Shown: piece by piece, positions 29,327-45,528 of the stretch | Position numbering within the stretch: position 1 is the first letter of the stretch | Layout: each line of letters opens with the position of its first letter | Assembly (NCBI GenBank): GCA_044229975.1 | Contig: JBGARZ010000025.1 | Location: forward strand, 64,001 to 128,000 | Length of the DNA stretch: 64,000 nucleotides | From: Polyangiales bacterium | GTDB taxonomy: Bacteria; Myxococcota_A; Polyangia; Polyangiales; Ga0077539 | Reading direction: 5' to 3' | The notes under the pieces: generated by a model | Seen by the model: the letters and a program-made list of their open reading frames with translations, nothing else | What the model was told of the DNA's origin: nothing | Databases searched by the model: none | Program-made: the position numbers and the translations under genes

Positions 29327-30358
29327 TCAGGGGCCGACGAGGAGCGCGGCGGCGCGTTCTGAGGCGCGATGAAGGGTGTCGAGCGGGAGGGTGCCCGCGT
29401 GATGTGGGAGGACCAGCACGACCGCGAGGAGCGCGAACGCAGGGCGGAGTGATGGTGGCGGCGTTGCAGGTCGCGGACGCCGATCGGCATAGGAGAGCAG
29501 AAGCCCCACACGCAACTTGATCGCCTCCGCGTGGGCTGCGCCGAGCGCTGGCTGGGGCGAGGGCGAAGGAGGGCGTGCGGCCGAGATGAGGGCTTGCGCG
29601 AGGGCAGGTGCCGAAGCGCCGGAGACCACCGCCGCGCGGTCGCAGTGGAGCTCGCGGGCCAGCACCCAGCGGGCGAGTTCGTCCCCGAGCATTGCGCGCC
29701 CGAGGGGGTTCACGGCCAGCGCCCATCGTGCCGCGAAGTAGCGGAGCGGGTCCTGGTCGCGGAGGTGTTCGAGCTCGTGGTGCAGGGCCGCGCAGAGCGC
29801 TTCGTCGTCGAGAGCGCGCGCGAAGTCCGTCCGCAGCACCACGCGAGGGACGACGACGCCCAGGGTCGCGATCGGGTCTGCACAGGCGTCCTCCACCATC
29901 ACGAGATCGCGGAGTGGGTGGAGCGCTGGGTGGCGGACGATCAGGGCCTCAACGCGGAGGCGCTGGAGCGCGGAGCCCTCGCTCGGTGTCGGCGACCGCC
30001 ATGATCTCCGCTCTCGGAGGATGCTTGGCACCGCGAGGGCAGTAGTCAGCGCCGACAGAACGAGCGCGAAGCTGATGGCCTCCAGGTTGAACCCGCCGGG
30101 AGCGGCATGTGCGGCGCAGATGAACAAGCGCTCGCCCGGCTCGGCCTGGTGGAGGCTCGCAGAGAGGAACCAGGCCAGCGGAGCCACGCTCGACGCCACG
30201 ATGATCGCGTATCGCAGGGACGATTGCCGAGGGAGACCCGCGGCGGGTTCAAGTCGGTCGAGCACGGCAAGCAGCGTCTTGGCGGTCAGCGCGGAGGCCG
30301 GGAGCGCGAACAGCACGACCAGCACTGGTCCCAGCAACGGGAAGATCGCCTCGTTCAC
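29327..30358 (-). CDS. M56 (BlaR1-like) membrane metallopeptidase
   Basis: HELEH..DQDP, ELHCD, LAQALI. Confidence 0.82.
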   Translation of the reverse strand: MNEAIFPLLGPVLVVLFALPASALTAKTLLAVLDRLEPAAGLPRQSSLRYAIIVASSVAPLAWFLSASLHQAEPGERLFICAAHAAPGGFNLEAISFALVLSALTTALAVPSILRERRSWRSPTPSEGSALQRLRVEALIVRHPALHPLRDLVMVEDACADPIATLGVVVPRVVLRTDFARALDDEALCAALHHELEHLRDQDPLRYFAARWALAVNPLGRAMLGDELARWVLARELHCDRAAVVSGASAPALAQALISAARPPSPSPQPALGAAHAEAIKLRVGLLLSYADRRPRPATPPPSLRPAFALLAVVLVLPHHAGTLPLDTLHRASERAAALLVGP

Positions 30359-30777
30359 GAACCGAGTTCCTTGCGGCGCAACTGGATCAGTCGTTCAAGC
30401 TCGTCCAACGCCGCGGAGTCCGCCGAGGAGACAGTCTCGACAAGGAGCGCCAGCGACTCTCGGCCCGCCGGCGCGCCGAGGCTCTCGAAGACCTCGCGCG
30501 CCGTGGATTGGAGGAACTCCTCCCGATCACCGCAGGTCGAGTAGAGGTAGCGCTTGCCGTCGCGCTCGCGGGTGAGGAGGCCCTTCTCGTGCAGCCGCAC
30601 AAGCGTCGTCATCACGGTCGTGTAGGCAACCTCGCGGCGCGTTTCGAGCACGACGAGGACGTCGCTGACCGCGAAGCGCCGCAGCTTGCGCGACCACACG
30701 ATGTCCATGATCTCCGCCTCGAAGTCGTGGAGACGGATCGCGACACCGGTCTGCCCTGGCCGTAGGCGAAAGGTCAT
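30355..30777 (-). CDS. BlaI/MecI/CopY-family repressor
   Basis: EAEIMDIVW...AYTTVMTTLVRLHEKGLLTR..GKRYLY. Confidence 0.92.
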   Translation of the reverse strand: MTFRLRPGQTGVAIRLHDFEAEIMDIVWSRKLRRFAVSDVLVVLETRREVAYTTVMTTLVRLHEKGLLTRERDGKRYLYSTCGDREEFLQSTAREVFESLGAPAGRESLALLVETVSSADSAALDELERLIQLRRKELGS

Positions 30778-30789
30778 GCTCGGAACGGA

Positions 30790-30810
30790 TCTACTATGGT
30801 GAGTAGTAGA
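30790..30810. promoter_or_regulatory. Putative BlaI operator
   Basis: TCTACTA-N7-TAGTAGA perfect 7-bp inverted repeat about 12 bp upstream of blaI. Confidence 0.65.
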
Positions 30811-30853
30811 CTGCAACGTCGGCTGCGCGACGCGAGGTGTCCGCTCACTCCGA

Positions 30854-31435
30854 TCACGTAGCGACGCGTGCCCGCGTCCAGACCCACGCCCCTGCGCTCA
30901 CCACCATGGCGCCGCCAAGGAGCCCGGCGAACATACCCAGGGCCTCGCCCAGGAACAGCCCGCTGCACCGCACCGACCCGATCGACACCACGCCAAGCAG
31001 CATCCCGACCCCGGCGCGCGCTCGCTGCCCTGCGTCGCCGCGACGCGGGAGGAGCGCCGCGAGCACCACGCCGAGCGCGACGCCGGCGAGGGCGCAGGTG
31101 CCGGGTCGGGCGCAGCAGTTCTCGCAGACCATCATCCCCGGCGCGCAGCATGGGCGGAGCAGGGACATCGGGAGCAGGAGCGTCGCGAGGCCGCCGAGCA
31201 GGCCCACCTGCGCGCCCCGCAACCACCACCCCCGCCGCCACCCCAGGAAGGTCCAGGCGAGGACGAGGGGTATCAACGTCAGGGGTTGCAGTGCGACGCC
31301 CGTCACGCGCGCCGCGAGAGCCGCGAGCACGAGTACGACGAGCGCGCGCACGAGGCCGTCCCGCGCGAGGCCCCACTCGTAAGCCCGGCGGGCGCGGGCT
31401 TCGAGGGACGACGGGGCGGTCGGATCAGGGGTCAT
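30854..31435 (-). CDS. Multi-TM putative anti-sigma factor with Cys cluster
   Basis: Overlaps the ECF stop; about 6 TM; PCCAPGMMVCENCC..C loop. Confidence 0.65.
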   Translation of the reverse strand: MTPDPTAPSSLEARARRAYEWGLARDGLVRALVVLVLAALAARVTGVALQPLTLIPLVLAWTFLGWRRGWWLRGAQVGLLGGLATLLLPMSLLRPCCAPGMMVCENCCARPGTCALAGVALGVVLAALLPRRGDAGQRARAGVGMLLGVVSIGSVRCSGLFLGEALGMFAGLLGGAMVVSAGAWVWTRARVAT

Positions 31436-31961
31436 GGTCACCTCCCAGGAGGGCGCGGATTCGTGCGTAGGCGCGAGACAGTCGCTTGCGGTACGTGGCG
31501 GGAGCGATCGGCGGAGGAGCCGCCTCCCCGAGGAGGACGGCGACGGCCTCGGCCGATGTCGGGTCGAGCGCGTCCACGCATTGCTGGAGCGCCCGGCGCA
31601 GTTCGTGGTCGGCGAGCGCGTCGTCCGCCTGGGCTTCCGCGTTCGGGTGGTGCTCCGGCACGGCGCTCTCGACGGTGCGGGTGCGGCGGAGCTCAGCACG
31701 GACCTCGTTGGCCACCACGGCGTAGAACCAGGGCAACACCGGGCGGCCGGGGGTGAAGGCGGTGGCGCGGGTGAAGAGCTTGAGCATGGCGGCCTGTGCG
31801 ACCTCATCAGCGCGTGCGGGCTCCAAGCGTCGACCGGCCGCCCGGAGAGCGCGCGGGTGGAGCGCGCGGAACAGGGGCGTGAACGCTCCGCGCTCGCCCT
31901 CGCAAAGGCGGACCATCAGGTCGTCGAGCTCGGCCTCCGAGGCTTCGCGGGGCGGAGGCAC
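31425..31961 (-). CDS. ECF sigma factor
   Basis: sigma2 (ADEVAQAAMLK..F..PW..AVVANE) and short sigma4 (ATYRKRLSRA). Confidence 0.85.
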   Translation of the reverse strand: MPPPREASEAELDDLMVRLCEGERGAFTPLFRALHPRALRAAGRRLEPARADEVAQAAMLKLFTRATAFTPGRPVLPWFYAVVANEVRAELRRTRTVESAVPEHHPNAEAQADDALADHELRRALQQCVDALDPTSAEAVAVLLGEAAPPPIAPATYRKRLSRAYARIRALLGGDHDP

Positions 31962-31973
31962 GCGGGCGTCGGG

Positions 31974-32156
31974 TCAGCCTGCGCGGTGGCGGCCCTGGCA
32001 GCAGGGCGAGCCGGGGTGGCAGCAGGGCGAGCCGGGGTAGCAGCAGTCGCTGGCGCCCCGGGCGGCGCGAACGGCGACAACCGTCGCCCCGAGGCCCGTG
32101 GTGAGGGAGAGAGCCCCGAGGATCATGAGGGTCCGGGGAGAGAGCAGCTTCATCAT
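31974..32156 (-). CDS. Small exported peptide with CCxPGSP repeats
   Basis: RBS AGGAGG; signal-like N-terminus; DCCYPGSPCCHPGSPCCQG. Confidence 0.75.
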   Translation of the reverse strand: MMKLLSPRTLMILGALSLTTGLGATVVAVRAARGASDCCYPGSPCCHPGSPCCQGRHRAG

Positions 32157-32180
32157 GGGTAGAGACCTCCTGTCCCCCTG

Positions 32181-32207
32181 CTAGCCGTTCGGGCGGCGGC
32201 CGTGACC
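32181..32207 (-). promoter_or_regulatory. Putative ECF promoter GGTCAC-N17-CTAG
   Basis: Identical motif and spacing at 42662-42688 (-) and 43087-43113 (+). Confidence 0.65.
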
Positions 32208-32247
32208 GACAAAGTGTCGCGCGGGCTGTTTCGGGCGTCGTGGTCGC

Positions 32248-32835
32248 CTACGTCGCCGGGGCGCAGGTGCAGTCGGCGCACCCGTCGTCCGCGCAGGACC
32301 CGCAGCAGGCCTGCACCCGCGCGCGGAGCGCCTCACGCGCCCGGAAGACCCGCACCGCGGCGTTGTTCGCGGTGATGCCCTCGGCCTCGGCGAAGTCCTT
32401 CACGCTCTGCCCCTCGACGGTCACCTGCCGGAGCGCCGCCGCGTACTCGGGCTTCATTGCGTCCGCCAGCCGCCCCACGCACGCGCAGGTGGTCGGCGCG
32501 AGGGCCGCCGGTGGCGGCGCCTCCGGCTCGTCCAGCTCCGCGGCCAGGGCGTCGAGCGCGCGGCCGTGGCTCGCGTCCCGGCGCCGACGGTCGATCACCG
32601 CGTTGCGCAGGATCCGGTAGAACCACGCGCGCGACGACTCGTCCTGCCGGAGCGAGGCGCCGTGGGTCACGCTGCGGGCGTAGGCGTCCTGGAGGATGTC
32701 CTCGGCCGCGGCGCGGTCGCCGAGGCGGCGCTCCAGGAAGGCGAGGAAGCTCGCGCGCGCGGCGAGCAGCGACTCGGTGACGTGGGCGTCCACGGGCCGG
32801 AGTCTAGCGCCGGCGGCGGGTACGGAGGGGGTCAC
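32248..32835 (-). CDS. CorE-like metal-responsive ECF sigma factor
   Basis: AEDILQD, WFYRILRN; CxC (CAC) between sigma2 and sigma4; C-terminal CCGSCADDGCADCTC; overlaps the copA stop. Confidence 0.85.
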   Translation of the reverse strand: MTPSVPAAGARLRPVDAHVTESLLAARASFLAFLERRLGDRAAAEDILQDAYARSVTHGASLRQDESSRAWFYRILRNAVIDRRRRDASHGRALDALAAELDEPEAPPPAALAPTTCACVGRLADAMKPEYAAALRQVTVEGQSVKDFAEAEGITANNAAVRVFRAREALRARVQACCGSCADDGCADCTCAPAT

Positions 32836-35183
32836 GGCGTCCACCGCCGCAGCCGAAGTGAGTTGAGCAGCACCGAGACGCTCGACAGCGACATCGCCGC
32901 GCTCGCGAAGACCGGCGAGAGCGACCAGCCCGTGACGGGTTCGAGTAGCCCCGCCGCGAGGGGGATGCCCACGAGGTTGTAGACGAAGGCCCAGAAGAGG
33001 TTCTGTCGGATCGTGCGCAGCGTGGCCCGCGCGAGCGCGAGCGCTGTCGGCACCGCCCCGACGCCGCCCCGCAGGATCGTCACGTCCGCGGCGGCCGCCG
33101 CGACGTCCGCGCCGCCGCCCATCGCCACGCCGAGGTCGGCCGCGGCCAACGCGGGCGCGTCGTTCACGCCGTCGCCCACCATCGCCACGTTGTGCCCCGC
33201 CGCGCGCAGCCGCGCCACCAGCACGGCCTTCTCCTCGGGGCGCACTTCCGCATGCACCTCGCCCACGCCCGCGGCGCGCGCGACCGTCAGCGCCGTCGCC
33301 CGCCGGTCGCCCGTCGCCATCGCCACGGAAACGCCCATCGCCGTCAACGCGGCCACGGTCGCGGCGGCCTCGGGGCGCACCGTGTCGGCCACCGTCACGA
33401 GGCCCGCGAGGGCGCCGTCGATGGCCACGAACACGGGCGTCTCACCCCGGCCCGCGGCCGCGGCTGCGGCGGGCTCCAGCGCGTCGGCGGCGACCCCCTG
33501 CGACGCCAGCCAGCGGGCCGTGCCGACAGACACGAGAGACGCGCCGACGCGCGACCGCACGCCCCCTCCAGGGGTCGCCGTGAAGTCCGTCGCGGTGACG
33601 GCTGTCAGGCCCTGCGCGGCGGCGCCCGCGACGATGGCGCGCGCCACGGGGTGTTCGCTCCCCGCCTCTGCGGCGGCCGCCAGCGCGAGCAGCTCGTCGT
33701 CGCGGCGGCCGCCTACGGGGAGTACCCGCGCGAGGGCCATCCGGCCCAGCGTGAGGGTGCCCGTCTTGTCGAAGAGCACCTGATCGATCTTCGAGGCGCG
33801 CTCCAGGGCCTCGCCGCCCTTCACCAGCAGCCCGAGGGCGGCCGCGCGGCTCGTGCCCACGGCGACGGCCGCGGGCGTGGCGAGCCCGAGCGCGCAGGGG
33901 CAGGCGATCACCAGCACGGCGACGGCCGCGGGCGTGGCGAGCCCGAGCGCGCAGGGGCAGGCGATCACCAGCACCGCGACGAAGTGCTCGACCGCGGCGG
34001 CCAGTCCGTCGGACCCGCGCGGGAGCACCATCCACGCGGCGAAGGTGAGTCCGGCGAACGCGACCACCGTCGGCACGAACACCGCGCTCACCCGATCGGC
34101 GAGGCGGGCGATGGGTGCGCGCGTGCCCTGAGCTTCGGAGACGGCGTCCACGATGCGCGCGACGGCCGACTCGGTGCCCCGGCGCGTCACCTCGATCACG
34201 AGGCTGCCGCCCTCGACCAGCGTCCCGCCCTGCACGGGGTCGCCGGAGCCGCGCTCCACGGGCACGCTCTCGCCCGTGAGCATCGACTCGTCCACAGCGG
34301 CCTGACCCTCCACGACCGTCCCGTCGGTCGGGACGCGCTGCCCGGGTCGCACGCGTACCCGGTCGCCCGGGAGCAGGGAGCCCACCGTCACCTCGATCTC
34401 GGCCCCGCCCCGCAGGCGCGTCGCGCTCGGCGGCTGGAGGGCCACGAGGCCGCGCACCGCGTCCCCGAGGCGCCGACGCGCGCGCCGCTCCAGGGCCTTG
34501 CCCAGCAGCATGAACGCGACGATCGCCCCGGCCGCCTCGAAGTACACCGGGACGTGGCCGTGCTCGCCGTGCGGGAGCAGGCGCGGCACGAAGGTCACCG
34601 CCGCCGACCAGCCCCAGGCGGTGAGGGCGCCGAGCGCGACGAGGACGTTCATGTCGGCGCTCCGGTGGCGCAGCGCCGCGACCGCGAGGCGGAGGAAGCG
34701 GCGGCCGGGGCCGAAGACCACCGCCGTCGCCAGTGCGAGCTGGAGGTAGCGCCCGGCGGCGCCCGCGGTCCCCGGGATCGCGCCGTGCGACATCCCGACG
34801 ACCAGGAGCGGCACAGCCAGGGCCGCAGCCACGATCAGGTCGCGCCGGTCGCGGCGGGCGTCGGCTTCTTCGGCGGCGTCGATGCGTGCGAGTCGGGTCG
34901 CGCCATCGGGCGGGGCCTCGCCCGCCGCGGGCACGTCGGGGACCTCGTAGCCCGCCCCGCGAATCGCCTCGGCGAGGGCCTCCGGGGCCGTCGCGGTGGG
35001 GTCGTAGTCGATCGTCGCGTGTTGGCTGGCGAGGTTCACCCGCGCGTCGAGCACGCCCGGGGCGCGCCCGAGCACGCGCTCGATGCGGCCGACGCAGGCC
35101 GCGCAGGTCATGCCGAGCACCGCGAACTGCACGCGCGTCGGGTCGGCGGGAAGGGACAGGGGGTTCGCGAGCGAGGATGTCAT
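32832..35183 (-). CDS. copA: Cu(I)-translocating P1B-type ATPase with duplicated CPC helix
   Basis: GMTCAAC, TGES, CPC, DKTGT, SEHP, GDGVND, YN..MSLSS. Confidence 0.93.
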   Translation of the reverse strand: MTSSLANPLSLPADPTRVQFAVLGMTCAACVGRIERVLGRAPGVLDARVNLASQHATIDYDPTATAPEALAEAIRGAGYEVPDVPAAGEAPPDGATRLARIDAAEEADARRDRRDLIVAAALAVPLLVVGMSHGAIPGTAGAAGRYLQLALATAVVFGPGRRFLRLAVAALRHRSADMNVLVALGALTAWGWSAAVTFVPRLLPHGEHGHVPVYFEAAGAIVAFMLLGKALERRARRRLGDAVRGLVALQPPSATRLRGGAEIEVTVGSLLPGDRVRVRPGQRVPTDGTVVEGQAAVDESMLTGESVPVERGSGDPVQGGTLVEGGSLVIEVTRRGTESAVARIVDAVSEAQGTRAPIARLADRVSAVFVPTVVAFAGLTFAAWMVLPRGSDGLAAAVEHFVAVLVIACPCALGLATPAAVAVLVIACPCALGLATPAAVAVGTSRAAALGLLVKGGEALERASKIDQVLFDKTGTLTLGRMALARVLPVGGRRDDELLALAAAAEAGSEHPVARAIVAGAAAQGLTAVTATDFTATPGGGVRSRVGASLVSVGTARWLASQGVAADALEPAAAAAAGRGETPVFVAIDGALAGLVTVADTVRPEAAATVAALTAMGVSVAMATGDRRATALTVARAAGVGEVHAEVRPEEKAVLVARLRAAGHNVAMVGDGVNDAPALAAADLGVAMGGGADVAAAAADVTILRGGVGAVPTALALARATLRTIRQNLFWAFVYNLVGIPLAAGLLEPVTGWSLSPVFASAAMSLSSVSVLLNSLRLRRWTP
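33858..33974. repeat. Perfect 57-bp tandem duplication inside copA
   Basis: Units 33858-33914 and 33915-33971 are identical; encode VLVIACPCALGLATPAAVA twice. Confidence 0.95.
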
Positions 35184-35210
35184 GGGATTCGGCTCCGGTT
35201 CGATCGGGCC

Positions 35211-35237
35211 GACGCAGCAGGGCGGGCTGGATTACAG
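35211..35237 (-). promoter_or_regulatory. Putative ECF promoter CTGTAA-N16-GCGTC upstream of copA
   Basis: Same motif and spacing at 36458-36484 and 36818-36844. Confidence 0.65.
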
Positions 35238-35282
35238 TCGTCGTTCGTCGAGGGCGCGCGGTGCAAAGCTGATGGCAGCAGC

Positions 35283-35825
35283 TCAGTGCGCGGCGCCGTG
35301 GGTCGGCGGCGCCGTCGAAGTGAGGCGCCGCCACGTGGGCTCGTCAACGACCTGCTGGCGCCACGCGGCGTGGCAAGAGGTGCAGGTGCGGAGGGTGGCG
35401 CCGAGCTCGGTCACGACCCGCGCGCGGTCCCGCTCGCGGGCCGCGACGCCGATGCGATCGGCCGTGTGGTGGAAGTTGAGCGCCTGCTCGGTAAAGCCCG
35501 GCGCGCCTGCCCCCATGTGGCTGCACTTCCGGCCCATCTGCTCGGAGTAGCCGAGCTGGGCCGCCGCCCGCTCGATCGCGGGGAAGTCTTCGACGGCAAG
35601 CGCCGCAACGATCTCCTGCACGGCGACGAGGTGACCCCGCATGTTCTGCTTCTGGTGGTTGGCCATCATTGGCAGCAGGGGAACGGCGTTGCGAGTGTCG
35701 AGGCGATCGAGCGCCTGCTGCGCCGACGGCTCGACCGGCGCGGCGGGCGCCGCGGCTCGAAGCCCCTCGGGCGCGCAGCCGGCGGCGGCGAGTGCGGCGG
35801 CAAGCAGCAGGATCGTGCGGGTCAC
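35283..35825 (-). CDS. Cytochrome c'-like lipoprotein
   Basis: Lipobox AAGC; helical body; C-terminal CTSCH. Confidence 0.75.
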   Translation of the reverse strand: MTRTILLLAAALAAAGCAPEGLRAAAPAAPVEPSAQQALDRLDTRNAVPLLPMMANHQKQNMRGHLVAVQEIVAALAVEDFPAIERAAAQLGYSEQMGRKCSHMGAGAPGFTEQALNFHHTADRIGVAARERDRARVVTELGATLRTCTSCHAAWRQQVVDEPTWRRLTSTAPPTHGAAH

Positions 35826-36289
35826 TCTGTTTCCCCTTCGCCCTCGGAGGCCACAGTGGCAGGCAGCGCGTCGAGGGCGGCGACGAGGTGCCCCAGGGCC
35901 TCGACGACCTGATCACGCCGTCCCTTGGGCACGGCAGCGAGCAACGCGCTGAACCGCGCGCCGCTGGCGACCTCGACCTCCCTCGCGAGAGTCTGACCGC
36001 GCTTCGTCAGGGTCACCCTCCGGCTGCGGGCGTCGTTCGCGTCCGCGTGCTGCCTGACATGGCCCGCCTCCACCATCTTCGCGCAGAGGCGGGCGACATT
36101 GCTCTTGTCGATGCAGAGCTCAGCGCCGAGGTCGCGCTGCGACACTTCGCCCTTCGAGAGCAGCACCATCAGCGCGTGCGCGTGCGCCACCGGCAGCGGC
36201 TTGCCGCACGGCGTCCGGTCGGTCGCGAGGGCGCCGAAGCGTCGAAACAACCGCTGCATGAGGCGGCGGAGCTCATCGGACTCCGCCAT
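35822..36289 (-). CDS. MarR-family regulator
   Basis: SQRDLGAEL.IDKSNVARL..KM..G.V...DARSRRVTLT..G; start uncertain. Confidence 0.88.
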   Translation of the reverse strand: MAESDELRRLMQRLFRRFGALATDRTPCGKPLPVAHAHALMVLLSKGEVSQRDLGAELCIDKSNVARLCAKMVEAGHVRQHADANDARSRRVTLTKRGQTLAREVEVASGARFSALLAAVPKGRRDQVVEALGHLVAALDALPATVASEGEGETE

Positions 36290-36330
36290 GTCAGGAGCCT
36301 TCGACATCGTGGCCGTGTCCGTAGTCGCAA

Positions 36331-36350
36331 ATGGTTGCGGTCGCAACTAT
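36331..36350. promoter_or_regulatory. Putative MarR operator
   Basis: ATGGTTGCG-GT-CGCAACTAT near-perfect palindrome upstream of marR. Confidence 0.6.
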
Positions 36351-36457
36351 ATCAGCACGGTCGTCTTCTCCCCTTGGGATGGCGAGCCTGTCGCAGCCAT
36401 GAGCTGGAGTTCCGTCATCGCCAACGCCCTCCGCCCGCGCCTGTGATGTCGATGCGG

Positions 36458-36484
36458 CTGTAAGGCGAGGAGGGGGACTGCGTC
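36458..36484 (+). promoter_or_regulatory. Putative ECF promoter CTGTAA-N16-GCGTC upstream of copZ
   Basis: One of three identical motifs. Confidence 0.65.
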
Positions 36485-36532
36485 TGCCTTGGTGCGAGCC
36501 GAAGCAACGCGGCCCGCAGGAGCGACGAAGCC

Positions 36533-36757
36533 ATGAACCCCACCGAGACCCTGCTCGACGTCCGCGGCATGAACTGCGGGTCGTGCGTCCGCCACATCTC
36601 CGAGGCCCTCGACGCGCTCGACGGCGTCGAGGAGGTCTGCCCCTCGCTGCCCGACAAGACCGTTCTCGTCCGGCACGACCCGGCGCGGGTGAGCGCCGAG
36701 CAGCTCGCCGACGCGCTCACCGCCCGGGGCTACCCCGCCGCCGCGCGTGCCGCGTGA
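36533..36757 (+). CDS. copZ: HMA copper chaperone
   Basis: GMNCGSC...GY. Confidence 0.88.
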   Translation: MNPTETLLDVRGMNCGSCVRHISEALDALDGVEEVCPSLPDKTVLVRHDPARVSAEQLADALTARGYPAAARAA

Positions 36758-36767
36758 ATCGACTCCG

Positions 36768-36814
36768 ACCGGGTCACAGGTCGGCCGCCCGGCCCTAAGA
36801 GCCTGTGACCCGGT
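36768..36814. repeat. 13-bp perfect inverted repeat downstream of copZ
   Basis: ACCGGGTCACAGG-N21-CCTGTGACCCGGT. Confidence 0.8.
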
Positions 36815-36817
36815 TCG

Positions 36818-36844
36818 CTGTAATCCCCACCCACCACGCGCGTC
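36818..36844 (+). promoter_or_regulatory. Putative ECF promoter CTGTAA-N16-GCGTC upstream of the lipoprotein-tolC-oxidase operon
   Basis: One of three identical motifs. Confidence 0.65.
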
Positions 36845-36860
36845 TGCCGCCACGAAGCCC

Positions 36861-37121
36861 ATGAACCTCTTGATCCCACGCGTTCTCATCCTGGTCGGTG
36901 TGACCGCCCTCCCGCTCGGGTGCGGAGGACGCGAGGTGCCTGTGCGCTTCGGCGAGCAGTCCGCCCTCTCGTCGGGCGCTCGTGAGGCGCCGGTCGCTGA
37001 CCCCACGGTGGCCCTCGCGGGCGACCCGCCCCTCCCGGGCGAGCCCACCGGGGCCTGGTCCGGCCTCGCGGCGGACGCGGGCGCCCCCCCTACCGGAGGA
37101 GGCCACGTCCATGCGCACTGA
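36861..37121 (+). CDS. Small lipoprotein with His tail
   Basis: Lipobox PLGC; ends GGGHVHAH; overlaps the next gene. Confidence 0.65.
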   Translation: MNLLIPRVLILVGVTALPLGCGGREVPVRFGEQSALSSGAREAPVADPTVALAGDPPLPGEPTGAWSGLAADAGAPPTGGGHVHAH

Positions 37122-38541
37122 GCGCCTCCTGCCGGCCGCCTTGGCGCTGCTGCTGCCGCTCACCGGGTGCGCGACGACGTCGTTCTCCTCCGATCTGCGG
37201 CGCGTCGAGCAGCTCTCCCACTCGCCCATCCCCCTACGCGTCGCGGACAACCCCCCCGAAGACCACGACCCGGCGGTCACGCGGGAGGTCCTCGCCCGCC
37301 CGCTCACGGCCGACGCCGCGGTGGGGGTGGCCTTCCGCAACAACCGGCACCTGCGCGCGTCGCTGCGCGATCTCGGCGTAGCGCGTGGCTGGCTCGCCCA
37401 GGCTGGCACGCTCCCCAACCCCGCCATCGAGTTCGACGTGCGCTACCAGACTGACCGCTCGCAGCCCCTCCAGGGCGACGTGCGCCTGGAGTTCGGGCTG
37501 ACGCGAGCGATCCTCACGACGCAGCGGGCGGGCCTCGCGCGGGCGGAGCTGGAGACGGCGCAGGCGCGCGTCGCAGGGACGGTGCTGGAGACGGGCTACG
37601 CGGTGCGCGTCGCCTTCTACGCGGTGCAAGCCTCCGAGGAGCGGCTCGCGGCCGCCCAGCAGGCGCTGGACGCCTTCGCGGCTGCGCGTGACGCGGCCCG
37701 CGCGCTCCACGCGGCGGGCAACATCAGGACACTCGACCTCTCGGTGCAGGAGGCGGCCTACGAGACCGCGCGCATCACGGTGGCGGAGATCGAGCTGGAG
37801 CGACTCGACCGCCGCGAGCACCTCCAGCGCCTGTTGGGGCTCCACGGCGACGCCACCGAGTGGACCCTCGCGGAGAGCCTACCCCCCGCGCCCGAGGCCC
37901 TCTCGCTGGAGGCGATGACCGAGACGCGCGCGCTCGAAGCCAGCCTCGACCTCGCGGCCCAGCGCGCGAACCTCCAGGCCCTCGCCCGGCGCGTCGGCCT
38001 CAGCCGGGCCGAGGGGTGGCTGCCCGACATCACGGTGGACGCGCACGCCGAACAAGACGGCAACTCCGTGGAGGTCGGCGGCGGGGCGCGTGTCACGCTC
38101 CCGATCTTCGACCAGCGTCGGGGGGCCACGGCCGCCTATGGTGCGCAGTTCGACGCCGCGCTTGAGCGCTACTACGCCAGCGCCGTGGACCTGCGCTCAG
38201 CCCTGCGCTCGGCCCGCAACCGCCTGCGCTCGGCGCACGCCCGCACACGGCAGTACGACGCCGTCATCGTACCAGCGCGCGAGCGTGTGCTGCGCGAGAC
38301 GCTGCTCCAGTACAACGCCATGCAGGTCTCGGTCTTCCAGCTGCTTGAGGCACGGCGCGAGCTGCTCGACGCCACGCTCCGCCGCGCCGAAATCCGCCGC
38401 GAGTTCTGGACCGCCACCGCGGGCACCGTGGCCCTCTTCGCCGGGCGCCAGGTGGGCGCGGCGGAGCACACATCCGATGCCACCGAGTCCATGTCCGCCA
38501 CGTCCATGGGCGCGAGCGGTGCGTCCGCAGGAGGCCATTGA
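37111..38541 (+). CDS. TolC-family copper-resistance outer-membrane lipoprotein
   Basis: Lipobox LTGC; LPNP, LPIFD, QYNAMQVSVFQLL. Confidence 0.87.
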   Translation: MRTERLLPAALALLLPLTGCATTSFSSDLRRVEQLSHSPIPLRVADNPPEDHDPAVTREVLARPLTADAAVGVAFRNNRHLRASLRDLGVARGWLAQAGTLPNPAIEFDVRYQTDRSQPLQGDVRLEFGLTRAILTTQRAGLARAELETAQARVAGTVLETGYAVRVAFYAVQASEERLAAAQQALDAFAAARDAARALHAAGNIRTLDLSVQEAAYETARITVAEIELERLDRREHLQRLLGLHGDATEWTLAESLPPAPEALSLEAMTETRALEASLDLAAQRANLQALARRVGLSRAEGWLPDITVDAHAEQDGNSVEVGGGARVTLPIFDQRRGATAAYGAQFDAALERYYASAVDLRSALRSARNRLRSAHARTRQYDAVIVPARERVLRETLLQYNAMQVSVFQLLEARRELLDATLRRAEIRREFWTATAGTVALFAGRQVGAAEHTSDATESMSATSMGASGASAGGH

Positions 38542-38545
38542 AACC

Positions 38546-39907
38546 ATGAACCGACGATCCTTTCTCCAAGCGGGCAGTGCGGCGACTGCGCTGGGGCTCA
38601 TGACCCGTGCGGAGCGGGCGGAGGCGCAGACCCACGAGGGTCACGGCGCGCCCGATGCCCCGGCGACGGGGCAGACACCACCGCCGCCAGCGACCTCCGC
38701 CGCGATCGCACGTCGCTTCCCCGCGGGGCAGCCCGGAGTGACGGTGCCGAACGGGGGCACTCTCCCTCTCCGCCTGGTGGACGGGGTGAAGGTCGGCCAC
38801 CTGGTGGTCGAGGCGTTCCCCAACGAGTTCGCGCCGGGGCTCACCGCGGAGGTGTGGGGCTACAACGGCACGACGCCGGGACCGGTGATCGAGCTGGTCG
38901 AGGGCGACCGTCTGCGGATGTACGTGACCAACCGGCTACCCGAGCCGACGACGGTGCATTGGCACGGCATCGTTCTGCCCAATGGCATGGACGGCGTGAG
39001 CGGCCTCAACCAACGCCCCATCCCGCCGGGCGAGACGTGGATGTACGAGTTCACGCTCCGGCACCCGGGCACGTTCATGTACCACTCGCACTTCGACGAG
39101 ATGACCCAGATCGCGCTCGGCGCGGTGGGCATGATCGTCGTCCACCCGCGCCAGGCGCGCGGCCCGCGGGTCGATCGGGACTTCGTGCTGATGGCGCACG
39201 AGTGGAAGATCGAGGCGGGTGCTCACCGCCCCGACCCCAACGCGATGAACGACTTCAACGTCCTCACCTTCAACGGCAAGGCGTTCCCGAGCACGGCGCC
39301 GCTGCTCGTGGGGAAGGGCGAGCGGGTGCGCATCCGCCTGGGCAACCTCGGGCCGATGGACCACCACCCGATCCACATCCACGGCCTCTGGTTCCACGTC
39401 ACGGCGACCGACGGCGGCTACGTGCCGGCGAGCGCGCAGAAGCCCGAGACGACGGTGCTGGTGCCGGTGGGAGCGACGCGGGTGATCGAGTTCGTGCCGC
39501 CCGAGTCAGGCGACTGGGCGATGCACTGCCACATGACCCATCACGTCATGATGCAGATGGCTCATGGCCTGCCGAACATGGTGGGGATGAACCCGGCGGC
39601 GTTGGAGCGACGCATGAGCCGGGTGATGCCCGAGTACATGACCATGGGGCACAGGGGCATGGGCGGCATGGGCGAGATGCGGATGGAGATCCCGCCCAAC
39701 AGCGCCCCGATGCGCGGTGGCATGGGGCCGCACTCGTACATCGACATGGGCGGGATGTTCACCATCCTGAAGGTGCGCGACGACGTCACCACCGCCGACC
39801 CGGCGGGGTGGTACCAGGCGCCCGCCGGGACGGTGCCCACGGCGGCACAAGAGGCGCGGCTGCGGGCTGACGGCATCGACGTGGCGCGGACCTATCGGCC
39901 GGGGTGA
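38546..39907 (+). CDS. Tat-exported multicopper oxidase with Met-rich C-terminus
   Basis: RRSFL; HWHG, YHSH, HPIHIHG, HCHMTHH. Confidence 0.92.
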   Translation: MNRRSFLQAGSAATALGLMTRAERAEAQTHEGHGAPDAPATGQTPPPPATSAAIARRFPAGQPGVTVPNGGTLPLRLVDGVKVGHLVVEAFPNEFAPGLTAEVWGYNGTTPGPVIELVEGDRLRMYVTNRLPEPTTVHWHGIVLPNGMDGVSGLNQRPIPPGETWMYEFTLRHPGTFMYHSHFDEMTQIALGAVGMIVVHPRQARGPRVDRDFVLMAHEWKIEAGAHRPDPNAMNDFNVLTFNGKAFPSTAPLLVGKGERVRIRLGNLGPMDHHPIHIHGLWFHVTATDGGYVPASAQKPETTVLVPVGATRVIEFVPPESGDWAMHCHMTHHVMMQMAHGLPNMVGMNPAALERRMSRVMPEYMTMGHRGMGGMGEMRMEIPPNSAPMRGGMGPHSYIDMGGMFTILKVRDDVTTADPAGWYQAPAGTVPTAAQEARLRADGIDVARTYRPG

Positions 39908-39977
39908 GTGGGCACGATGCGACGCATGGTGAGCTCAACCGCTACGGGCCTGTCGATCGCTCGCGGTCCGCCGGGCC

Positions 39978-40466
39978 TCAGCCGACGCGCCTCATGCGTT
40001 TTGCGTAGATGACCTTGTCGTCTCCGTCTGCGTAGAAGTCCGGCACGCGTCCGCACGCGGAGTACCCGTGCTTCTCGTAGAAGCGCCGCGCCCGCGCCGT
40101 CGGTGGCAAGGCGCTCGTCTCGATCACGAGAATCCGACCACCCCGGGTGCTCACTTCTGACTCGACGGAGCGCAACAGCGCATCGCCGATGCCCTGACCG
40201 TGATGGGCAGGGGCCGCGCCGATCCACCAGAGGTCCCACACGCGGTCGGCCTTCTCGTTCGAAGAGAAGTACGCCCATCCGAGCGGCGGTCAGGCCGGAC
40301 CCTCGGACCACACCCACGCCAGATGATCGGGACCCAAGCGACCGGCGTGAATCTCATCGAGCGTCGCCCTGAGCAGGAGGTCCGCTTCGTCGGCTTGGAA
40401 GAGCCCGGTCGAAACGGCCAGCGAGACCAGGGCGGGTGTGTCGTCGGGGGCAGCGGGGCGCATCAT
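39978..40466 (-). pseudogene. GNAT acetyltransferase with in-frame TGA
   Basis: Two ORFs in one frame separated only by TGA at 40290-40292; HGQGIG, ARRFYEKHGY. Confidence 0.8.
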
Positions 40467-40571
40467 GGCCGCGACTACGGAACCCAATCACCGGCAGTTA
40501 CACGCGATCGCTGCTTGGAGTCGCGTGGTGCGCCGAGACGATCGCGGGAGGGCCCTACCGACAGGGGCCAG

Positions 40572-41156
40572 TCAGGGAAGGACGCGGACCACGCCCGCCA
40601 TCCCGACGTGTCCGTGGGTGTTGCAGTAGAACGGGTAGAACCCGGCGCCGGGGAAGGTCACCGCGTAGGTCGTCCCCACGCGCTGCGCGTCGATGGGGCT
40701 CGGGGTTGTGGCGCCCGCGCTCGACCCGTGCGGCACGCCGGGGATCAGCGGGTGCGTGGTGAAGCTCATCGAGAAGGTCACCGACTGCCCGGTACGGATG
40801 GTGAGACAGCGCGGCGTGTAGCCCGTGGTGCCGCGGGGTACCACCGTGCGCTCGGCGTCGTCGGCGCTGCGGTCTACGTAGTTCGCGGCCCGGCAGTCGT
40901 TGAGCAGGGGCACTACCGTCGAAGCGTCCGCAACTGTCCCCGCGTCGGTCGCGGCATCCTGGTCGGTGGTCGCGACGTCGACGGCTGTCGGCTGGTCCGT
41001 GGCGGTGCCGACGTCGGTCGTCCCAACGTCCGAAGTCCCGACGTCGGCCGCGTCGTGACCCTCGTGGGCGGCCGCGTCGGTCGTGTCGTGTGCCATGTCG
41101 CCGCAGCCGGCGAACAGAGGAAACAGGGCGAGGACGAGGGTCATTCGAGCGGGCAT
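40572..41156 (-). CDS. Cupredoxin (plastocyanin/halocyanin-like) lipoprotein
   Basis: Lipobox FAGC; type-1 Cu ligands HP...YCNTH...M. Confidence 0.85.
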   Translation of the reverse strand: MPARMTLVLALFPLFAGCGDMAHDTTDAAAHEGHDAADVGTSDVGTTDVGTATDQPTAVDVATTDQDAATDAGTVADASTVVPLLNDCRAANYVDRSADDAERTVVPRGTTGYTPRCLTIRTGQSVTFSMSFTTHPLIPGVPHGSSAGATTPSPIDAQRVGTTYAVTFPGAGFYPFYCNTHGHVGMAGVVRVLP

Positions 41157-41191
41157 CGAGGGGCCTTTCCGGTGCGCAGTGGGGTCGTGGC

Positions 41192-42616
41192 TCAGGGCTC
41201 CACGCGGACGGTGGCCATCATCCCGTGCTCGATGTGCTCAAGGATGTGGCAGTGGTACATCCAGTGGCCGGGGCGCTCGTCGGGGCGGAACGCGATGCGC
41301 ACCCGCTCCTTGCCACGCAGCTGGATCGTGTCCTCCCACGAGCGCTCGGCCTCGTCCGCGCCGTTGCGCGACACGACCTGGAAGAAGAACCCGTGCAGGT
41401 GGAACGGGTGCTCCATCTCGCTCGCGTTGACGAGGTCCCACACCTCGGTGTTGCCCACGCGCGCGACGACGTCCGGCACGTCCGGGTAGGACCGGTCGTT
41501 GATGGTGAACACCACCTGCTCGCGGTCGCGATCGATGTACTCGTTGAAGGTCACCGTGCGCGGCGCGATGCCTGCCGTGACCAGCGGCTCGACCCGTATG
41601 CGGGGCGCGGGGGCGGCGAGTGTTGGCAACGCCGAGTCGGGCGCGTAGCGGAGCCGCAGGACGTCCGCCGCCTCGGTGAGACCAGCGCCGTGGCCGCGGG
41701 CGTAGGGGAGGTTGCGCAGGGGCGCGGTCGTGCCCGGGCTGCCGACGCCGTCCACCAGGACGTCGAGGCGATCGCCAGGGACGAGAAAGAGCTCGTCGGA
41801 CGTGCGTGGTGTCGCGACGGACCCTCCGTCGGTCCCCACCACGGTGAAGCGGTGCCCCGGGAGAGCGAGGCGGTAGAAGCGGGCGCTGCCGGCGTTCACG
41901 ACGCGCCACCGCTGCCGCTGGCCCGCGCGGATCGGCAGCTCCGCGCCCGCGCGTCCGTTGACGAGCGAGACGGGACCCTCCCTGCCGCTGTGCTGCTCGA
42001 CGAGGTCCCCGGTGGGCGCGATCTCCCCGTCCGACCCGACCAGGAGGTCGTCGAGCATGACGACGCCCTCGACGTCTGCGCGGGGTTCATGGTCGCCGCG
42101 CACCACGACCGCGCCGTAGAGGCCGCGCTCCATCTGTACGCTCTCGGTGACGTGCGGGTGGTACCAGAAGGTCCCCGCGTCCGGAACGGTGAAGCGGTAC
42201 TCGAAGCTCGCGCCGGGGGCGACGGGCGGCTGCGAGTGGGGGCTGCCGTCCATCGACGCAGGCACCCGCACGCCGTGCCAGTGGATCGTCGTCGGCTGGT
42301 CGAGCCGGTTGGTGAAGTGCACGACCACGGTGTCCCCGGCGCGCGCCTCGATCGTGGGCCCGGGGACCATGCCGTTGTAGGTCATCGCTCGGACGCGCCG
42401 ACCCGGCGAGTACTCCCACTGACCGAAGCGCGCTTCGAGGTCGATCTCGACGACGCGCGGATCGGGGTTGCGGTCGGCGGCGGGCTCGACGCGGAGCGCC
42501 GCGGCCCAGGGGTCGGGGCCGGTGCGAGGCGCAGGCGGTGCCTCGGGGGCGTCGCCGCAGCCGACAGCTACGAACAGCGCGGAGAGGGTCCAGCGGAGGT
42601 GGGGCGCGAGAGGCAT
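41192..42616 (-). CDS. Three-domain multicopper oxidase lipoprotein
   Basis: HWHG, WYHPH, HPFHLHG, HCHILEH...M. Confidence 0.93.
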   Translation of the reverse strand: MPLAPHLRWTLSALFVAVGCGDAPEAPPAPRTGPDPWAAALRVEPAADRNPDPRVVEIDLEARFGQWEYSPGRRVRAMTYNGMVPGPTIEARAGDTVVVHFTNRLDQPTTIHWHGVRVPASMDGSPHSQPPVAPGASFEYRFTVPDAGTFWYHPHVTESVQMERGLYGAVVVRGDHEPRADVEGVVMLDDLLVGSDGEIAPTGDLVEQHSGREGPVSLVNGRAGAELPIRAGQRQRWRVVNAGSARFYRLALPGHRFTVVGTDGGSVATPRTSDELFLVPGDRLDVLVDGVGSPGTTAPLRNLPYARGHGAGLTEAADVLRLRYAPDSALPTLAAPAPRIRVEPLVTAGIAPRTVTFNEYIDRDREQVVFTINDRSYPDVPDVVARVGNTEVWDLVNASEMEHPFHLHGFFFQVVSRNGADEAERSWEDTIQLRGKERVRIAFRPDERPGHWMYHCHILEHIEHGMMATVRVEP

Positions 42617-43113: not shown

Positions 43114-43173
43114 ACAGGGATCCGCCGAAGTACCCGCGGCCGTCCGCCGCGCGCCCGAAGGAGCGAAGACCTG

Positions 43174-43605
43174 ATGAACAAAGAGACCCGAGCGAAGTTG
43201 CTGGTGATGGTATCCGCGGCCTTTGGGGTCGCCGCGGTGGAGGGCTGCGCGAGCAACCCGTCCATGATGGCGCAGCCGCCCGCAAGCTCGCAGTCGGCTG
43301 ACCCCGCACCCGCCACGACGCCTGCGCCCGCCGCGCAGGTCGGCACCGGTCCGACGCAGACCCCGAGCTCGACGGCCCCTGCGCCCGCCTCGGCCCCACA
43401 GGGAGCGGCCACGGGTCAGGCCATGAGCTGCGGCCAGGACGGCAACTGCGGCGCGCACATGGGCTCCTCGTCGTCGCCCGCACCGGGCACCACGGCGGCC
43501 CAGCCGACCCCGACGGCGGCCCCGACGCCGGCCACCACACCGACGACGGCTCCCGCCACGGCTCCAGCAACGGCGCGGCCCCACCAACACAACCACGCAC
43601 ACTGA
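43174..43605 (+). CDS. Putative MNIO precursor: lipoprotein with SCGQDGNCG core and His tail
   Basis: RBS AAGGAG; lipobox VEGC; P/A/T linkers; directly upstream of DUF692. Confidence 0.75.
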   Translation: MNKETRAKLLVMVSAAFGVAAVEGCASNPSMMAQPPASSQSADPAPATTPAPAAQVGTGPTQTPSSTAPAPASAPQGAATGQAMSCGQDGNCGAHMGSSSSPAPGTTAAQPTPTAAPTPATTPTTAPATAPATARPHQHNHAH

Positions 43606-43608
43606 TCG

Positions 43609-44442
43609 ATGGCGCACGTCGAGGGCGTCGGCCTGGGCCTGCGGGCCCCGCTGTTTCGCGACCTGATGTCGCGGGCGCCCGCGGCGTTGCGCTGGGTCGA
43701 GGTCTCTCCCGAGAACCATCTCGGGCGCGGCGGCTTCTTCGAGGCGATGCTGGCGGAGACCCGCGCGCGCTACCCGGTGGTGACGCACGGCGTAAGCCTC
43801 GGGCTCGGCGACCGCGAGCCGCCAGCGCGCGACCTGCTGCGCGCGATGCGGGGCTTCCTCGAAGCCGTGCAGACCCCCTGGCACAGCGATCATCTGTGCT
43901 TCGGCGCGGTCGACGGCGCCCACCTCCACGACCTCCTTCCCCTACCGTTGACCGAAGAGAGCGTCGGTCGTGTGGTGGACCGGGTTCGGCTGCTCGAAGA
44001 CGCGCTCGGTCTCCCCATCGCCGTCGAGAACATCTCCTGGTACGCGCACCCCGGCGAGGCGGAGATGGACGAGGCCGACTTCCTCGGCGAGATCACCGCG
44101 CGCAGCGGCGCCCTCCTCCTGCTCGACGTCAACAACGCCTACGTCAACGCGCGCAACCGCGGGGGAGACGCGCGGGAGTTCATCCGTCGCATCCCGGCCG
44201 ACCGTGTGGTGCAGATGCACGTCGCCGGGCACCTCGTGGCCGCCGACGGGTTTCGCCTCGATACGCACGGCGAGGCTGTCTGCGACGATGTGTACGGGCT
44301 GCTCGCGTACACCCTGTCGCGCACTGGGCCCGTGCCGGTTCTGTTGGAGAGAGACGGCGGCTTTCCCCCGTGGGACGAGCTCGTCGCGGAGCTCGAACGA
44401 CTCGACGCCATCGTCCGCGCTTCAACACAGGCAGCGCCTTGA
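43609..44442 (+). CDS. DUF692 multinuclear non-heme iron oxidative enzyme (MNIO)
   Basis: GVGLGLR, EVSPEN, HGVSL, SDHL, LLPLP, EN, LLLDVNNAYVN, HVAGH, DTHG, LLERD. Confidence 0.95.
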   Translation: MAHVEGVGLGLRAPLFRDLMSRAPAALRWVEVSPENHLGRGGFFEAMLAETRARYPVVTHGVSLGLGDREPPARDLLRAMRGFLEAVQTPWHSDHLCFGAVDGAHLHDLLPLPLTEESVGRVVDRVRLLEDALGLPIAVENISWYAHPGEAEMDEADFLGEITARSGALLLLDVNNAYVNARNRGGDAREFIRRIPADRVVQMHVAGHLVAADGFRLDTHGEAVCDDVYGLLAYTLSRTGPVPVLLERDGGFPPWDELVAELERLDAIVRASTQAAP

Positions 44443-45170
44443 GCGGGCTCGACGCGCACCAGCGGGCCATCGCCCGGCTCACACTTGGGGCCGAACTCGA
44501 CGAGGCGTCGCTGGCCTCGCTAGGCGGCGACCGCGTTCGGTGGCTGGTGTACCGCGACCTCGTGCGCAACCGGCTCTGGTCGCTGCTGCTCGAAGCGCTG
44601 CCGCGCACCTTCGCGGCGGCCGGCAGCGCGCGCTTCGGGGGGTGGTTTACCCGCTACCTCGACGAGGAGGCGCCGCGCACGCACTTCGTCCGCGACGTGG
44701 CGCCGGCCTTCGGTCGGTGGGTGCGCGCGGCGGAGGCCGAGGCCCTGGCGTCACCGTCGCCGTGGCTGCCCGAGGCGCTGTCCCTCGACCTGGCCGAGCA
44801 TCACGTCGGCCTCTCGGCAGCGCGCGTCGACGCATCGCGACTCACCGACTTCGCGATGGACCTCCCCGCGGCGCTCGATCCGACACACCAGCGGCTGCGC
44901 CTCTCGTGGACCCCGGAGGGCGCGCCCGATGCGCGGGCACTGCTGCTGTTTCGTCACCCGGAGCGCCACTCTGTGGAGACGCTCGCGCTCACCCCGATGG
45001 CGGCCGACGTGCTCGACGCGATGGACGACGGGGCGACGCCCGCGGCCGAGGCCGTGCGCGCGGTGCTGGCACGCTACGACGTGGTCGCGGGGTCGGCGTT
45101 TGTGGAGAGCTTCGCGGGCCTGCTCGCCGAACTGATGGAGCGCGGTGTCTTGAGGGGCTCGCTGCGGTAG
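44439..45170 (+). CDS. DUF2063-like MNIO partner protein
   Basis: TTGA overlap; RWLVYRDLVRNRL...LPRT; PqqD/RRE-like C-terminus (LAELMERGVL). Confidence 0.8.
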   Translation: MSGLDAHQRAIARLTLGAELDEASLASLGGDRVRWLVYRDLVRNRLWSLLLEALPRTFAAAGSARFGGWFTRYLDEEAPRTHFVRDVAPAFGRWVRAAEAEALASPSPWLPEALSLDLAEHHVGLSAARVDASRLTDFAMDLPAALDPTHQRLRLSWTPEGAPDARALLLFRHPERHSVETLALTPMAADVLDAMDDGATPAAEAVRAVLARYDVVAGSAFVESFAGLLAELMERGVLRGSLR

Positions 45171-45174
45171 GGCG

Positions 45175-45528
45175 TTACATGGCGTGGCGGAAGGCCGTGA
45201 GGTCGACGCGCACGCGGGTGTCGTTGCTCACCTTGAGCCGCAGCAGCGCCGGAACGCCGATCCCGTAGTCGGTGGGCGACAGGTTGGGAAGGTCGACGGT
45301 GAAGCGCCCGGCGGTCGAGGTGGAGATGCCGTCGACGGTTTCGAGCGGTGCGTCGGAGGTGAAGAGTACGCGCGACTCGCCGTTCGTGCGGAGGTCGAAG
45401 CGCTGCACGCCGGTGGGCGCGGCGGCGGGCGCCATGGTGGGAGGCGTCGGCGGTGTCTACGCGCCGAGCGGAGCGGACATCGAGAGGAGACTGATCGCGA
45501 CGAGCGAAGCGAGAGGGCTGATCTTCAA
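45175..45528 (-). pseudogene. YceI-like remnant (nonsense codon plus internal deletion)
   Basis: Signal peptide ended by TAG at 45457-45459; SRVLFTSDAPLETVDG sits close to DYGI.VP..L.LKV. Confidence 0.65.

Follow-up and report, generated by a model that had tools for sequence, protein, structure and literature searches.

A three-gene MNIO operon of a Polyangiales bacterium and its probable product, a lipid-anchored copper-binding peptide

Introduction

Beside a set of copper genes in a Polyangiales genome lie three adjacent genes encoding a small predicted lipoprotein with two core cysteines, an MNIO and a DUF2063-containing partner. What does this operon make, and is the product a membrane-tethered, MNIO-modified copper chelator, as the first-pass annotation of the window (the whole stretch of DNA analysed, 64,000 nucleotides) had proposed? 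That proposal stands as the best reading of the locus, given the lipobox cysteine, the presence of Lgt and LspA, the partner gene and the copper island. What the analysis establishes is the gene content, conservation, selection, tree position and copper-gene setting; the chemistry, lipidation, location and metal are inferred from these.

The three-gene operon probably directs the synthesis of a lipid-anchored, 5-thiooxazole-containing, copper-chelating RiPP, that is, a captophorin-type DAG-RiPP. In the cytoplasm, the DUF2063/RRE partner would bind the precursor and the MNIO would convert Cys86 and Cys92 to 5-thiooxazoles, an oxidation of 4 Da at each residue. Exported by Sec, the peptide would then be diacylglycerated at Cys25 by Lgt and cleaved by LspA; as the +2 residue is neither Lys nor Asp, it would probably travel to the outer membrane. 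The Pro/Ala/Thr linker would keep the modified Cys pair off the membrane, and the pair would capture excess Cu(I); oxazolin suggests a ratio of about one ion to each pair.

Organization of the operon

The three genes form an intact operon under purifying selection (Table 1). Genes A and B are separated by 3 nt, and the TTG start of gene C overlaps the stop codon of the MNIO gene; together with the ribosome-binding site, this spacing suggests a single transcript. A scan for promoters and terminators found nothing and is uninformative at the GC content of this 10.0-Mb genome (about 71%).

The precursor gene is a real gene, as seen from its ribosome-binding site, its tight spacing to the MNIO gene, a GC3 of 0.85 and a dN/dS of 0.15 against the paralogue on contig C29. 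Against the paralogue on C19, its dN/dS is 0.49. For genes B and C, dN/dS against the paralogues is 0.15–0.32, on which ground a decaying duplicate was rejected. The lipobox, stalks, two-Cys core and His tail that the first-pass annotation had described in the precursor are all in place.

Table 1. Positions of the operon, its elements and its neighbours in the window
Feature	Position	Strand	Remark
Ribosome-binding site AAGGAG	43158..43163	+	Same element 5' of both paralogous precursors
Precursor gene A, 143 aa, predicted lipoprotein (P0001)	43174..43605	+	No Pfam or NCBIfam match
Signal peptide and lipobox VEG-C25	43174..43248	+	Predicted diacylglyceryl site; +2 residue Ala
Core QAMSCGQDGNCGAHM, Cys86 and Cys92	43417..43461	+	Predicted MNIO targets; 87% nt identity to C29 core
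His-rich tail PHQHNHAH	43579..43602	+	Lineage-specific, 4/77 precursors
MNIO gene B, 277 aa (P0002)	43609..44442	+	PF05114; active-site acidic and His residues conserved
Partner gene C, 243 aa (P0003), PME1 type	44439..45170	+	DUF2063, weak NGO1945_C, PqqD-like
yceI remnant	45175..45435	-	Lacks a large internal, in-frame segment of the 205-aa copy that adjoins the C19 paralogue
Multicopper oxidase	41192..42616	-	Divergent from operon
Cupredoxin-domain protein	40572..41156	-	Context
CopZ-like HMA protein, outer-membrane efflux protein, second multicopper oxidase	36533..39907	+	
Copper-translocating P-type ATPase	32835..35183	-	TIGR01511, 564.5 bits (cut-off 397)

The MNIO and its partner

The pairing of an MNIO with a DUF2063 protein, already recognised in the first-pass annotation, is borne out by profile searches. 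P0002 matches PF05114 with 298.7 bits (cut-off 25) and P0003 matches PF09836 (DUF2063) with 27.7 bits (cut-off 27.2), its matches to PF22106 (NGO1945_C) and PF05402 (PqqD) being below cut-off in the window protein and stronger in relatives. P0003 also scores below cut-off for HvfC (51 against 142). In NCBIfam, P0002 reaches 272.5 of the 360 bits demanded for HvfB (NF003818), 271.3 of 310 for BufB and 51 of 600 for ChrH; as it is below both the HvfB and BufB cut-offs, its chemistry is extrapolated. Three relatives score 282–296 with the HvfB model, which the controls from N. gonorrhoeae and a P. aeruginosa plasmid pass (371.8 and 406.3). The closest solved structure is 3BWW (E 1.4e-49), followed at a distance by the DUF692 protein 8HCI (E 1.7e-22) and MbnB (E 7e-8).

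The MNIO appears to have an intact metal site and catalytic Asp. Residues H60, H95, E140, D173, N176, H204, H208, E247 and D249 do not vary among the 74 clade rows and are shared by the N. gonorrhoeae enzyme, D249 being the equivalent of the catalytic base. The ligand roles are presumed from MbnB or from the HvfB preprint.

In FonB, Arg15, Arg16, Asp249 and Phe250 are the specificity and catalytic residues (PMC13097082). Mapped through the GYRR and LERDF motifs of the N. gonorrhoeae enzyme, the window MNIO keeps Arg12 and Asp249, while Ala13 and Gly250 occupy the Arg16 and Phe250 positions. At these two positions neither Arg nor Phe is common across the 74 clade rows, and the replacement may fit substrates that contain no Lys-Cys. 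Every MNIO-PME1 cluster characterised so far installs 5-thiooxazoles and, as a rule, binds Cu, and Gly after Cys, as in the window core, is the residue preferred by FonB (PMC13097082).

The placement of the MNIO, for which the first-pass annotation had proposed a sequence-similarity network, was carried out with an IQ-TREE tree of 34 rows comprising 19 Myxococcota enzymes, three EGKCG-type references, three Obscuribacterales enzymes and nine bufferin-type enzymes. The 19 sampled Myxococcota MNIOs form one clade (100/98), and they are separated together with the EGKCG and Obscuribacterales enzymes from the bufferin-type ones at 100/100. The sister of the Myxococcota enzymes, whether the EGKCG or the Obscuribacterales group, has 82/44 support and no order is assigned. 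A quick tree of 95 rows agrees. The Buf1 and Buf2 labels on the reference loci follow annotations and the Cys patterns that we take to mark each type.

Copper genes, DoxX and YceI around the operon

A copper ATPase, CopZ, two multicopper oxidases and a cupredoxin are all encoded within 11 kb of the operon. The C29 paralogue has a similar copper island, so that two of the three operon copies in the genome adjoin copper genes; no copper-type neighbours are present among the ORFs listed around the C19 paralogue. Context in the wider family was counted in 80 related loci, kept of 127 confirmed, with flanks up to 6 kb. A multicopper oxidase with a cupredoxin occurs in three of these loci, a heavy-metal P-type ATPase in seven and an ECF sigma factor with NrsF in four.

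DoxX was found in just one of the 80 loci, in a screen of 24 short, crudely called hydrophobic ORFs (14 scanned individually, plus cluster representatives), and it is annotated in five of six annotated plasmid reference loci. The first-pass remark that no DoxX gene is adjacent to the operon proved right: the two matches in the genome are on contigs C2 and C10, neither with an MNIO. YceI genes are present in 33 of the 80 loci, in 28 of them immediately 5' of the precursor gene and in its orientation, in the other five 3', a count that is not independent as the loci are kin.

These data bear on the first alternative, that the precursor is modified and lipidated, but that the product is of another kind, such as a ChrH-like macrocycle, or that its role lies with another soft metal or with oxidative or envelope stress. 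The separate clade of the enzyme, its scores below both curated cut-offs, the clade-wide replacement of the equivalents of FonB Arg16 and Phe250, and the prevalence of YceI and housekeeping genes over copper genes beside most related loci would agree with it. Against it stand the very low ChrH score, the absence of a CPxCGxG motif from the precursor, the PME1 partner, the copper genes beside two of the three operon copies and the length of the MNIO, since 277 residues are too few to include the C-terminal bundle of ChrH (PMC13056109). Such a product or role is considered unlikely, and a copper-chelating 5-thiooxazole peptide is preferred.

Several further features of the surroundings were observed. 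The copper-resistance island (30358-42616) also contains a CopY/BlaI-like repressor, two ECF sigma factors and a MarR protein, and is largely duplicated on C29. The yceI remnant is convergent with the operon, has lost about 115 codons relative to the C19 copy and owes its label to homology with L093:7751-8377. Beyond it, the segment 45573-53950 holds a series of small lipoprotein-like genes whose products combine Asp/Ala/Thr-rich linkers with Cys-rich domains, among them one Rieske-domain and one DUF7482 protein; it is partly duplicated on C19. In related loci, the upstream YceI-domain gene often has a lipobox-like signal (28 loci among L056-L105, most from Polyangiaceae and Labilithrix, such as L063:4423-5199) and is 24–181 bp from the precursor gene in 27 loci and 477 bp in L096. 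Three of the five loci with a downstream yceI belong to a second subtype.

The precursor and its Myxococcota relatives

The N-terminus of P0001 has a positive charge followed by a hydrophobic stretch and VEG-C25. Cys25 is followed by a stretch rich in Ala, Pro, Ser and Thr, and the core AMSC86GQDGNC92GAHM comes next; another stretch, of Ala/Thr/Pro, leads to the His-rich tail. Cys25, Cys86 and Cys92 are the only cysteines, and Gly follows both core ones. The protein contains no Lys-Cys, and it matches neither NF050137 nor NF050188 in NCBIfam; a DUF2282 match, a 6-Cys pattern and a CPxCGxG motif were likewise looked for in it and not found. The nearest Atlas clusters, a lead only, are unnamed and mostly from Myxococcota (0.90, 0.85 and 0.84).

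The genome encodes three such operons (window, C19 and C29) and a distant fourth MNIO on contig C38. Genes B and C of the window are 92% and 91% identical to those of C19, and 78% and 64% identical to those of C29. The window precursor, in turn, is 65% identical to that of C29 and 56% to that of C19, and its 69-nt core has a blastn match in C29 only. The left flank of the window operon is similar to C29 (85–90% nt) and the right flank to C19 (78–90%), from which the locus is inferred to be recombinant, with a C29-type precursor placed before C19-type enzymes. The C38 locus (102269-104682) encodes the fourth MNIO, whose sequence groups with bufferin-type enzymes, a partner and a convergent lipoprotein-like gene with a Cys-rich end.

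The C29 and C19 precursors have four and five core cysteines, respectively. The first stalk of P0001 aligns with a Cys-bearing module of the C29 paralogue, so that two cysteines represent the low end of a variable repeat number; the two stalks were therefore rejected as a defining feature, and so was the His tail as a defining metal site in view of its rarity in the family (Table 1).

Related precursors were gathered from 112 loci, namely a set of 30 that includes the window, the two paralogues and the 80 retained from 127 confirmed loci. A rule-based search gave a full precursor in 85 loci and 77 distinct sequences, one start being hand-corrected. The 27 loci left out comprise nine cut by contig ends, six of the Obscuribacterales type, one with a Nannocystis lipoprotein missed by the rule and 11 in which no precursor was found directly upstream, a result verified by eye for L034 only. 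At L034 (5762-6001) and L047-L049, which encode an MNIO and a partner, no precursor was found directly 5', and the gene for the substrate may lie at another site; in L034, about 240 bp separate NrsF from the MNIO that follows it.

The residue before the 350 core cysteines is Ser in 230 cases, Gly in 40, Thr in 31, Ala in 22, Asn in 15 and Lys in one, and the residue after is Gly in 241 and Ser in 73, EASCG and EGSCG being the commonest 5-mers. The last two cysteines are 4 residues apart in 61 of the 77 precursors and 5 apart in 11, and the last one is no more than 13 residues from the C-terminus in 65. The window core has a spacing of 5 in place of the usual 4, and the window lineage ends in a Pro/Ala tail instead of a terminal Cys pair.

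By these comparisons the window precursor appears to be a minimal two-Cys member of this set. Its direct sequence tie to the distant precursors is weak: an HMM built from 66 distant-clade precursors gives P0001 26.2 bits, a score reached by five of 300 shuffled sequences, and with a core-only HMM it goes unrecognised, 176 of the 300 shuffles scoring as high. The link is made instead by enzyme orthology, gene order and the intermediates L038, L039 and C19.

The precursor family appears to be related to the HvfA/EGKCG group. In the loci from N. gonorrhoeae and the P. aeruginosa plasmid (L115, L116), whose enzymes pass the HvfB model, the precursors have QGSCG or EGSCG repeats, and EGTCG and EGACG occur in other HvfA-family homologues, which places Ser-Cys-Gly among the variants of the EGKCG sphere. 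No named H. influenzae HvfA was returned when the N. gonorrhoeae precursor served as query. The HvfA model NF050137 is passed by one of 30 scanned relatives (L098, 28.9 against 19.5), while none passes a Pfam model; across the phylum it passes in five of 151 genomes and nowhere in the window's own genome (G000). On the question raised in the first-pass annotation, whether the precursor falls in a characterised family, the answer is thus yes for some relatives and no for the window precursor itself.

The second alternative is that Cys86 and Cys92 escape modification and pair as a disulfide, or serve as thiol ligands of a metal, in the manner of C38 and C43 of HvfA, the true substrates of the MNIO being the paralogous precursors. 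The two N-terminal cysteines of HvfA, outside the EGKCG motif, do form a disulfide (PMC11252979), the window pair aligns with internal repeats of the longer relatives and not with their terminal pair, and the precursor appears swapped relative to its enzyme. Yet Cys86 and Cys92 are the sole core cysteines of a gene coupled to an MNIO, and 11 of the 12 precursors without a terminal pair are those of the window lineage, each directly 5' of intact enzymes. Moreover, the QAMSCGxxGxCG pair is retained in seven precursors, and residues 74–143 of P0001 are under purifying selection (dN/dS 0.10 against C29). An unmodified pair is thus quite improbable, and oxidation of both cysteines by the adjacent MNIO remains the preferred reading.

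Some relatives depart from the common pattern. The precursors of L031-L033, from the same genus, are rich in His, Cys and Gly, with nine core cysteines including CxC and CPC motifs, and are located 3' of an ECF sigma factor and NrsF, as in Buf1 bufferin clusters. The Obscuribacterales-type loci, where a precursor was read, have EGSCK repeats and no lipobox Cys; those of L099-L101, L107 and L108 are Lys-rich with tandem GKEGSCK repeats, and the L101 precursor has no NCBIfam or Pfam match.

The lipid anchor

A lipobox-like Cys is found in 76 of the 77 distinct related precursors by a home-made rule, a count that is partly circular since the rule chose starts placing a Cys at 14–40. Across the family this Cys is kept at position 20–29, after an uncharged stretch. 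To this extent a lipobox-like Cys is conserved, a point on which the first-pass annotation had made its reading depend, and relatives have canonical boxes such as LSAC, LAGC and VAAC. The genome encodes both Lgt and LspA. The lipid anchor is not exceptional in it, as 480 of 7511 crudely called genes contain the lipobox pattern, against 24 in shuffles. Lgt (PF01790) matches at five loci, but LspA at one only (G000 C38, C11, C31, C17).

The consensus lipobox is L-[A/S/T]-[G/A]-C, and Lys is at +2 in 8 of 12 M. xanthus inner-membrane lipoproteins (PMC3222651); the Ala at +2 of P0001 hints at the outer membrane. The Glu at -2 is atypical, being present in six of the 77 family precursors and in 3 of 563 lipobox-like matches in the genome (1.4 in shuffles).

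This off-consensus Glu would suit a precursor not lipidated in the window lineage but cut near Ala21 by signal peptidase I to give a soluble periplasmic peptide, which is very unlikely given the Cys kept at 20–29 throughout the family, the canonical boxes of relatives and the contrast with the outgroup Obscuribacterales precursors, which resemble substrates of signal peptidase I and lack a Cys right behind the hydrophobic stretch.

A lipid anchor on MNIO RiPPs is already known from published DAG-RiPPs and from lipoprotein subsets of bufferins and oxazolins. Both triacylation and MNIO modification have been demonstrated for DybA and for the EGKCG peptide NedA (PMC13056109), and the case of NedA indicates that the two are compatible. 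Lipoprotein signals are predicted in about 16% of Buf2 (PMC12452194). The first-pass impression that the window precursor is unlike known ones therefore does not hold, lipidated MNIO RiPPs of both EGKCG and bufferin types having been published (PMC13056109, PMC12452194).

Comparison with known systems

The window cluster has the genomic marks of MNIO-PME1 (captophorin) clusters, namely the MNIO metal site, an adjacent DUF2063/RRE partner and an exported Cys-containing precursor directly 5', and it falls outside the strict HvfA/HvfB, bufferin and ChrH families. The captophorins described are oxazolin (HvfA), gonophorin, fontiphorin and bulbicupramide (PMC13097082, PMC11252979, PMC12538549). They share with the window operon the A-B-C gene order, the PME1 partner, the LERD active-site motif and paired Cys-Gly cassettes, and the fon cluster is similarly minimal, with three genes. 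Unlike the window precursor, HvfA has a signal peptidase I signal, and characterised captophorin sites are Lys-Cys; in the window MNIO, Ala13 and Gly250 take the places of an Arg and a Phe of NgoB.

NedA/NedBC of Neisseria dentiae (PMC13056109) resembles the window operon in its lipobox precursor, MNIO, partner and Cys-Gly repeats, and membrane-bound copper sequestration has been proposed for it, as it is here; for NedA, triacylation and a loss of 4 Da per motif were shown. The window lineage differs by Ser/Asn-Cys-Gly in place of Lys-Cys-Gly, a separate MNIO clade and long Pro/Ala linkers. In the window lineage the lipobox is also the rule and not confined to a subset.

The bufferins Buf1 (DUF2282) and Buf2 (PMC12452194) also combine an MNIO with DUF2063, some Buf2 are predicted lipoproteins, and the ECF sigma factor and NrsF 5' of four related loci recall Buf1 clusters. 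The window operon lacks DUF2282, the 6-Cys pattern and DoxX, and its enzyme is on the other side of the well-supported split. The chryseobasin/DybA DAG-RiPPs of the ChrH family similarly have a lipobox Cys and two core cysteines, but the window operon differs in its ChrH score, in having no CPxCGxG motif and in its partner protein.

In the main texts and passages covered, no description of the Myxococcota precursor family or of a YceI-MNIO-RiPP link was found. The precursors may well be included in the sequence tables published with PMC13056109 (Table S6, Dataset 2), with PMC13097082 (Data set S2) and with PMC12452194 (Table S2).

A myxobacterial captophorin lineage

The window operon adds no new kind of system. 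Lipidated MNIO peptides were known; judged from the sequences compared, what is added is a widespread Myxococcota branch with Ser-Cys-Gly repeats, mostly without DoxX.

A wider reading, speculative and doubtful as a whole, is that Myxococcota have a captophorin lineage of their own, nearly always lipid-anchored. Its enzymes, devoid of the Arg/Phe pocket, would modify Ser/Asn-Cys-Gly on almost any linker, so that precursors could be swapped between paralogous enzymes, as has seemingly happened in the window. The lipid-binding YceI protein encoded in the same orientation would, in many members, stand in for the usual DoxX and aid trafficking or reloading of the lipopeptide, leading to a surface or vesicle-borne copper shield. 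If true, lipidated captophorins would go from scattered subsets to a whole myxobacterial lineage, one mostly missed by present curated models. It would also provide a thiooxazole-forming enzyme that is naturally Ser-Cys-specific and tolerant of linkers, on which the specificity rules proposed for FonB could be tested. The physiology is testable in a cultured member, Labilithrix luteola DSM 27648 (locus L063).

In L054 (8882-11094), the MNIO cluster is followed about 1 kb 3' by another, whose precursor is a Buf2-like lipoprotein with six Cys; yceI lies between the two.
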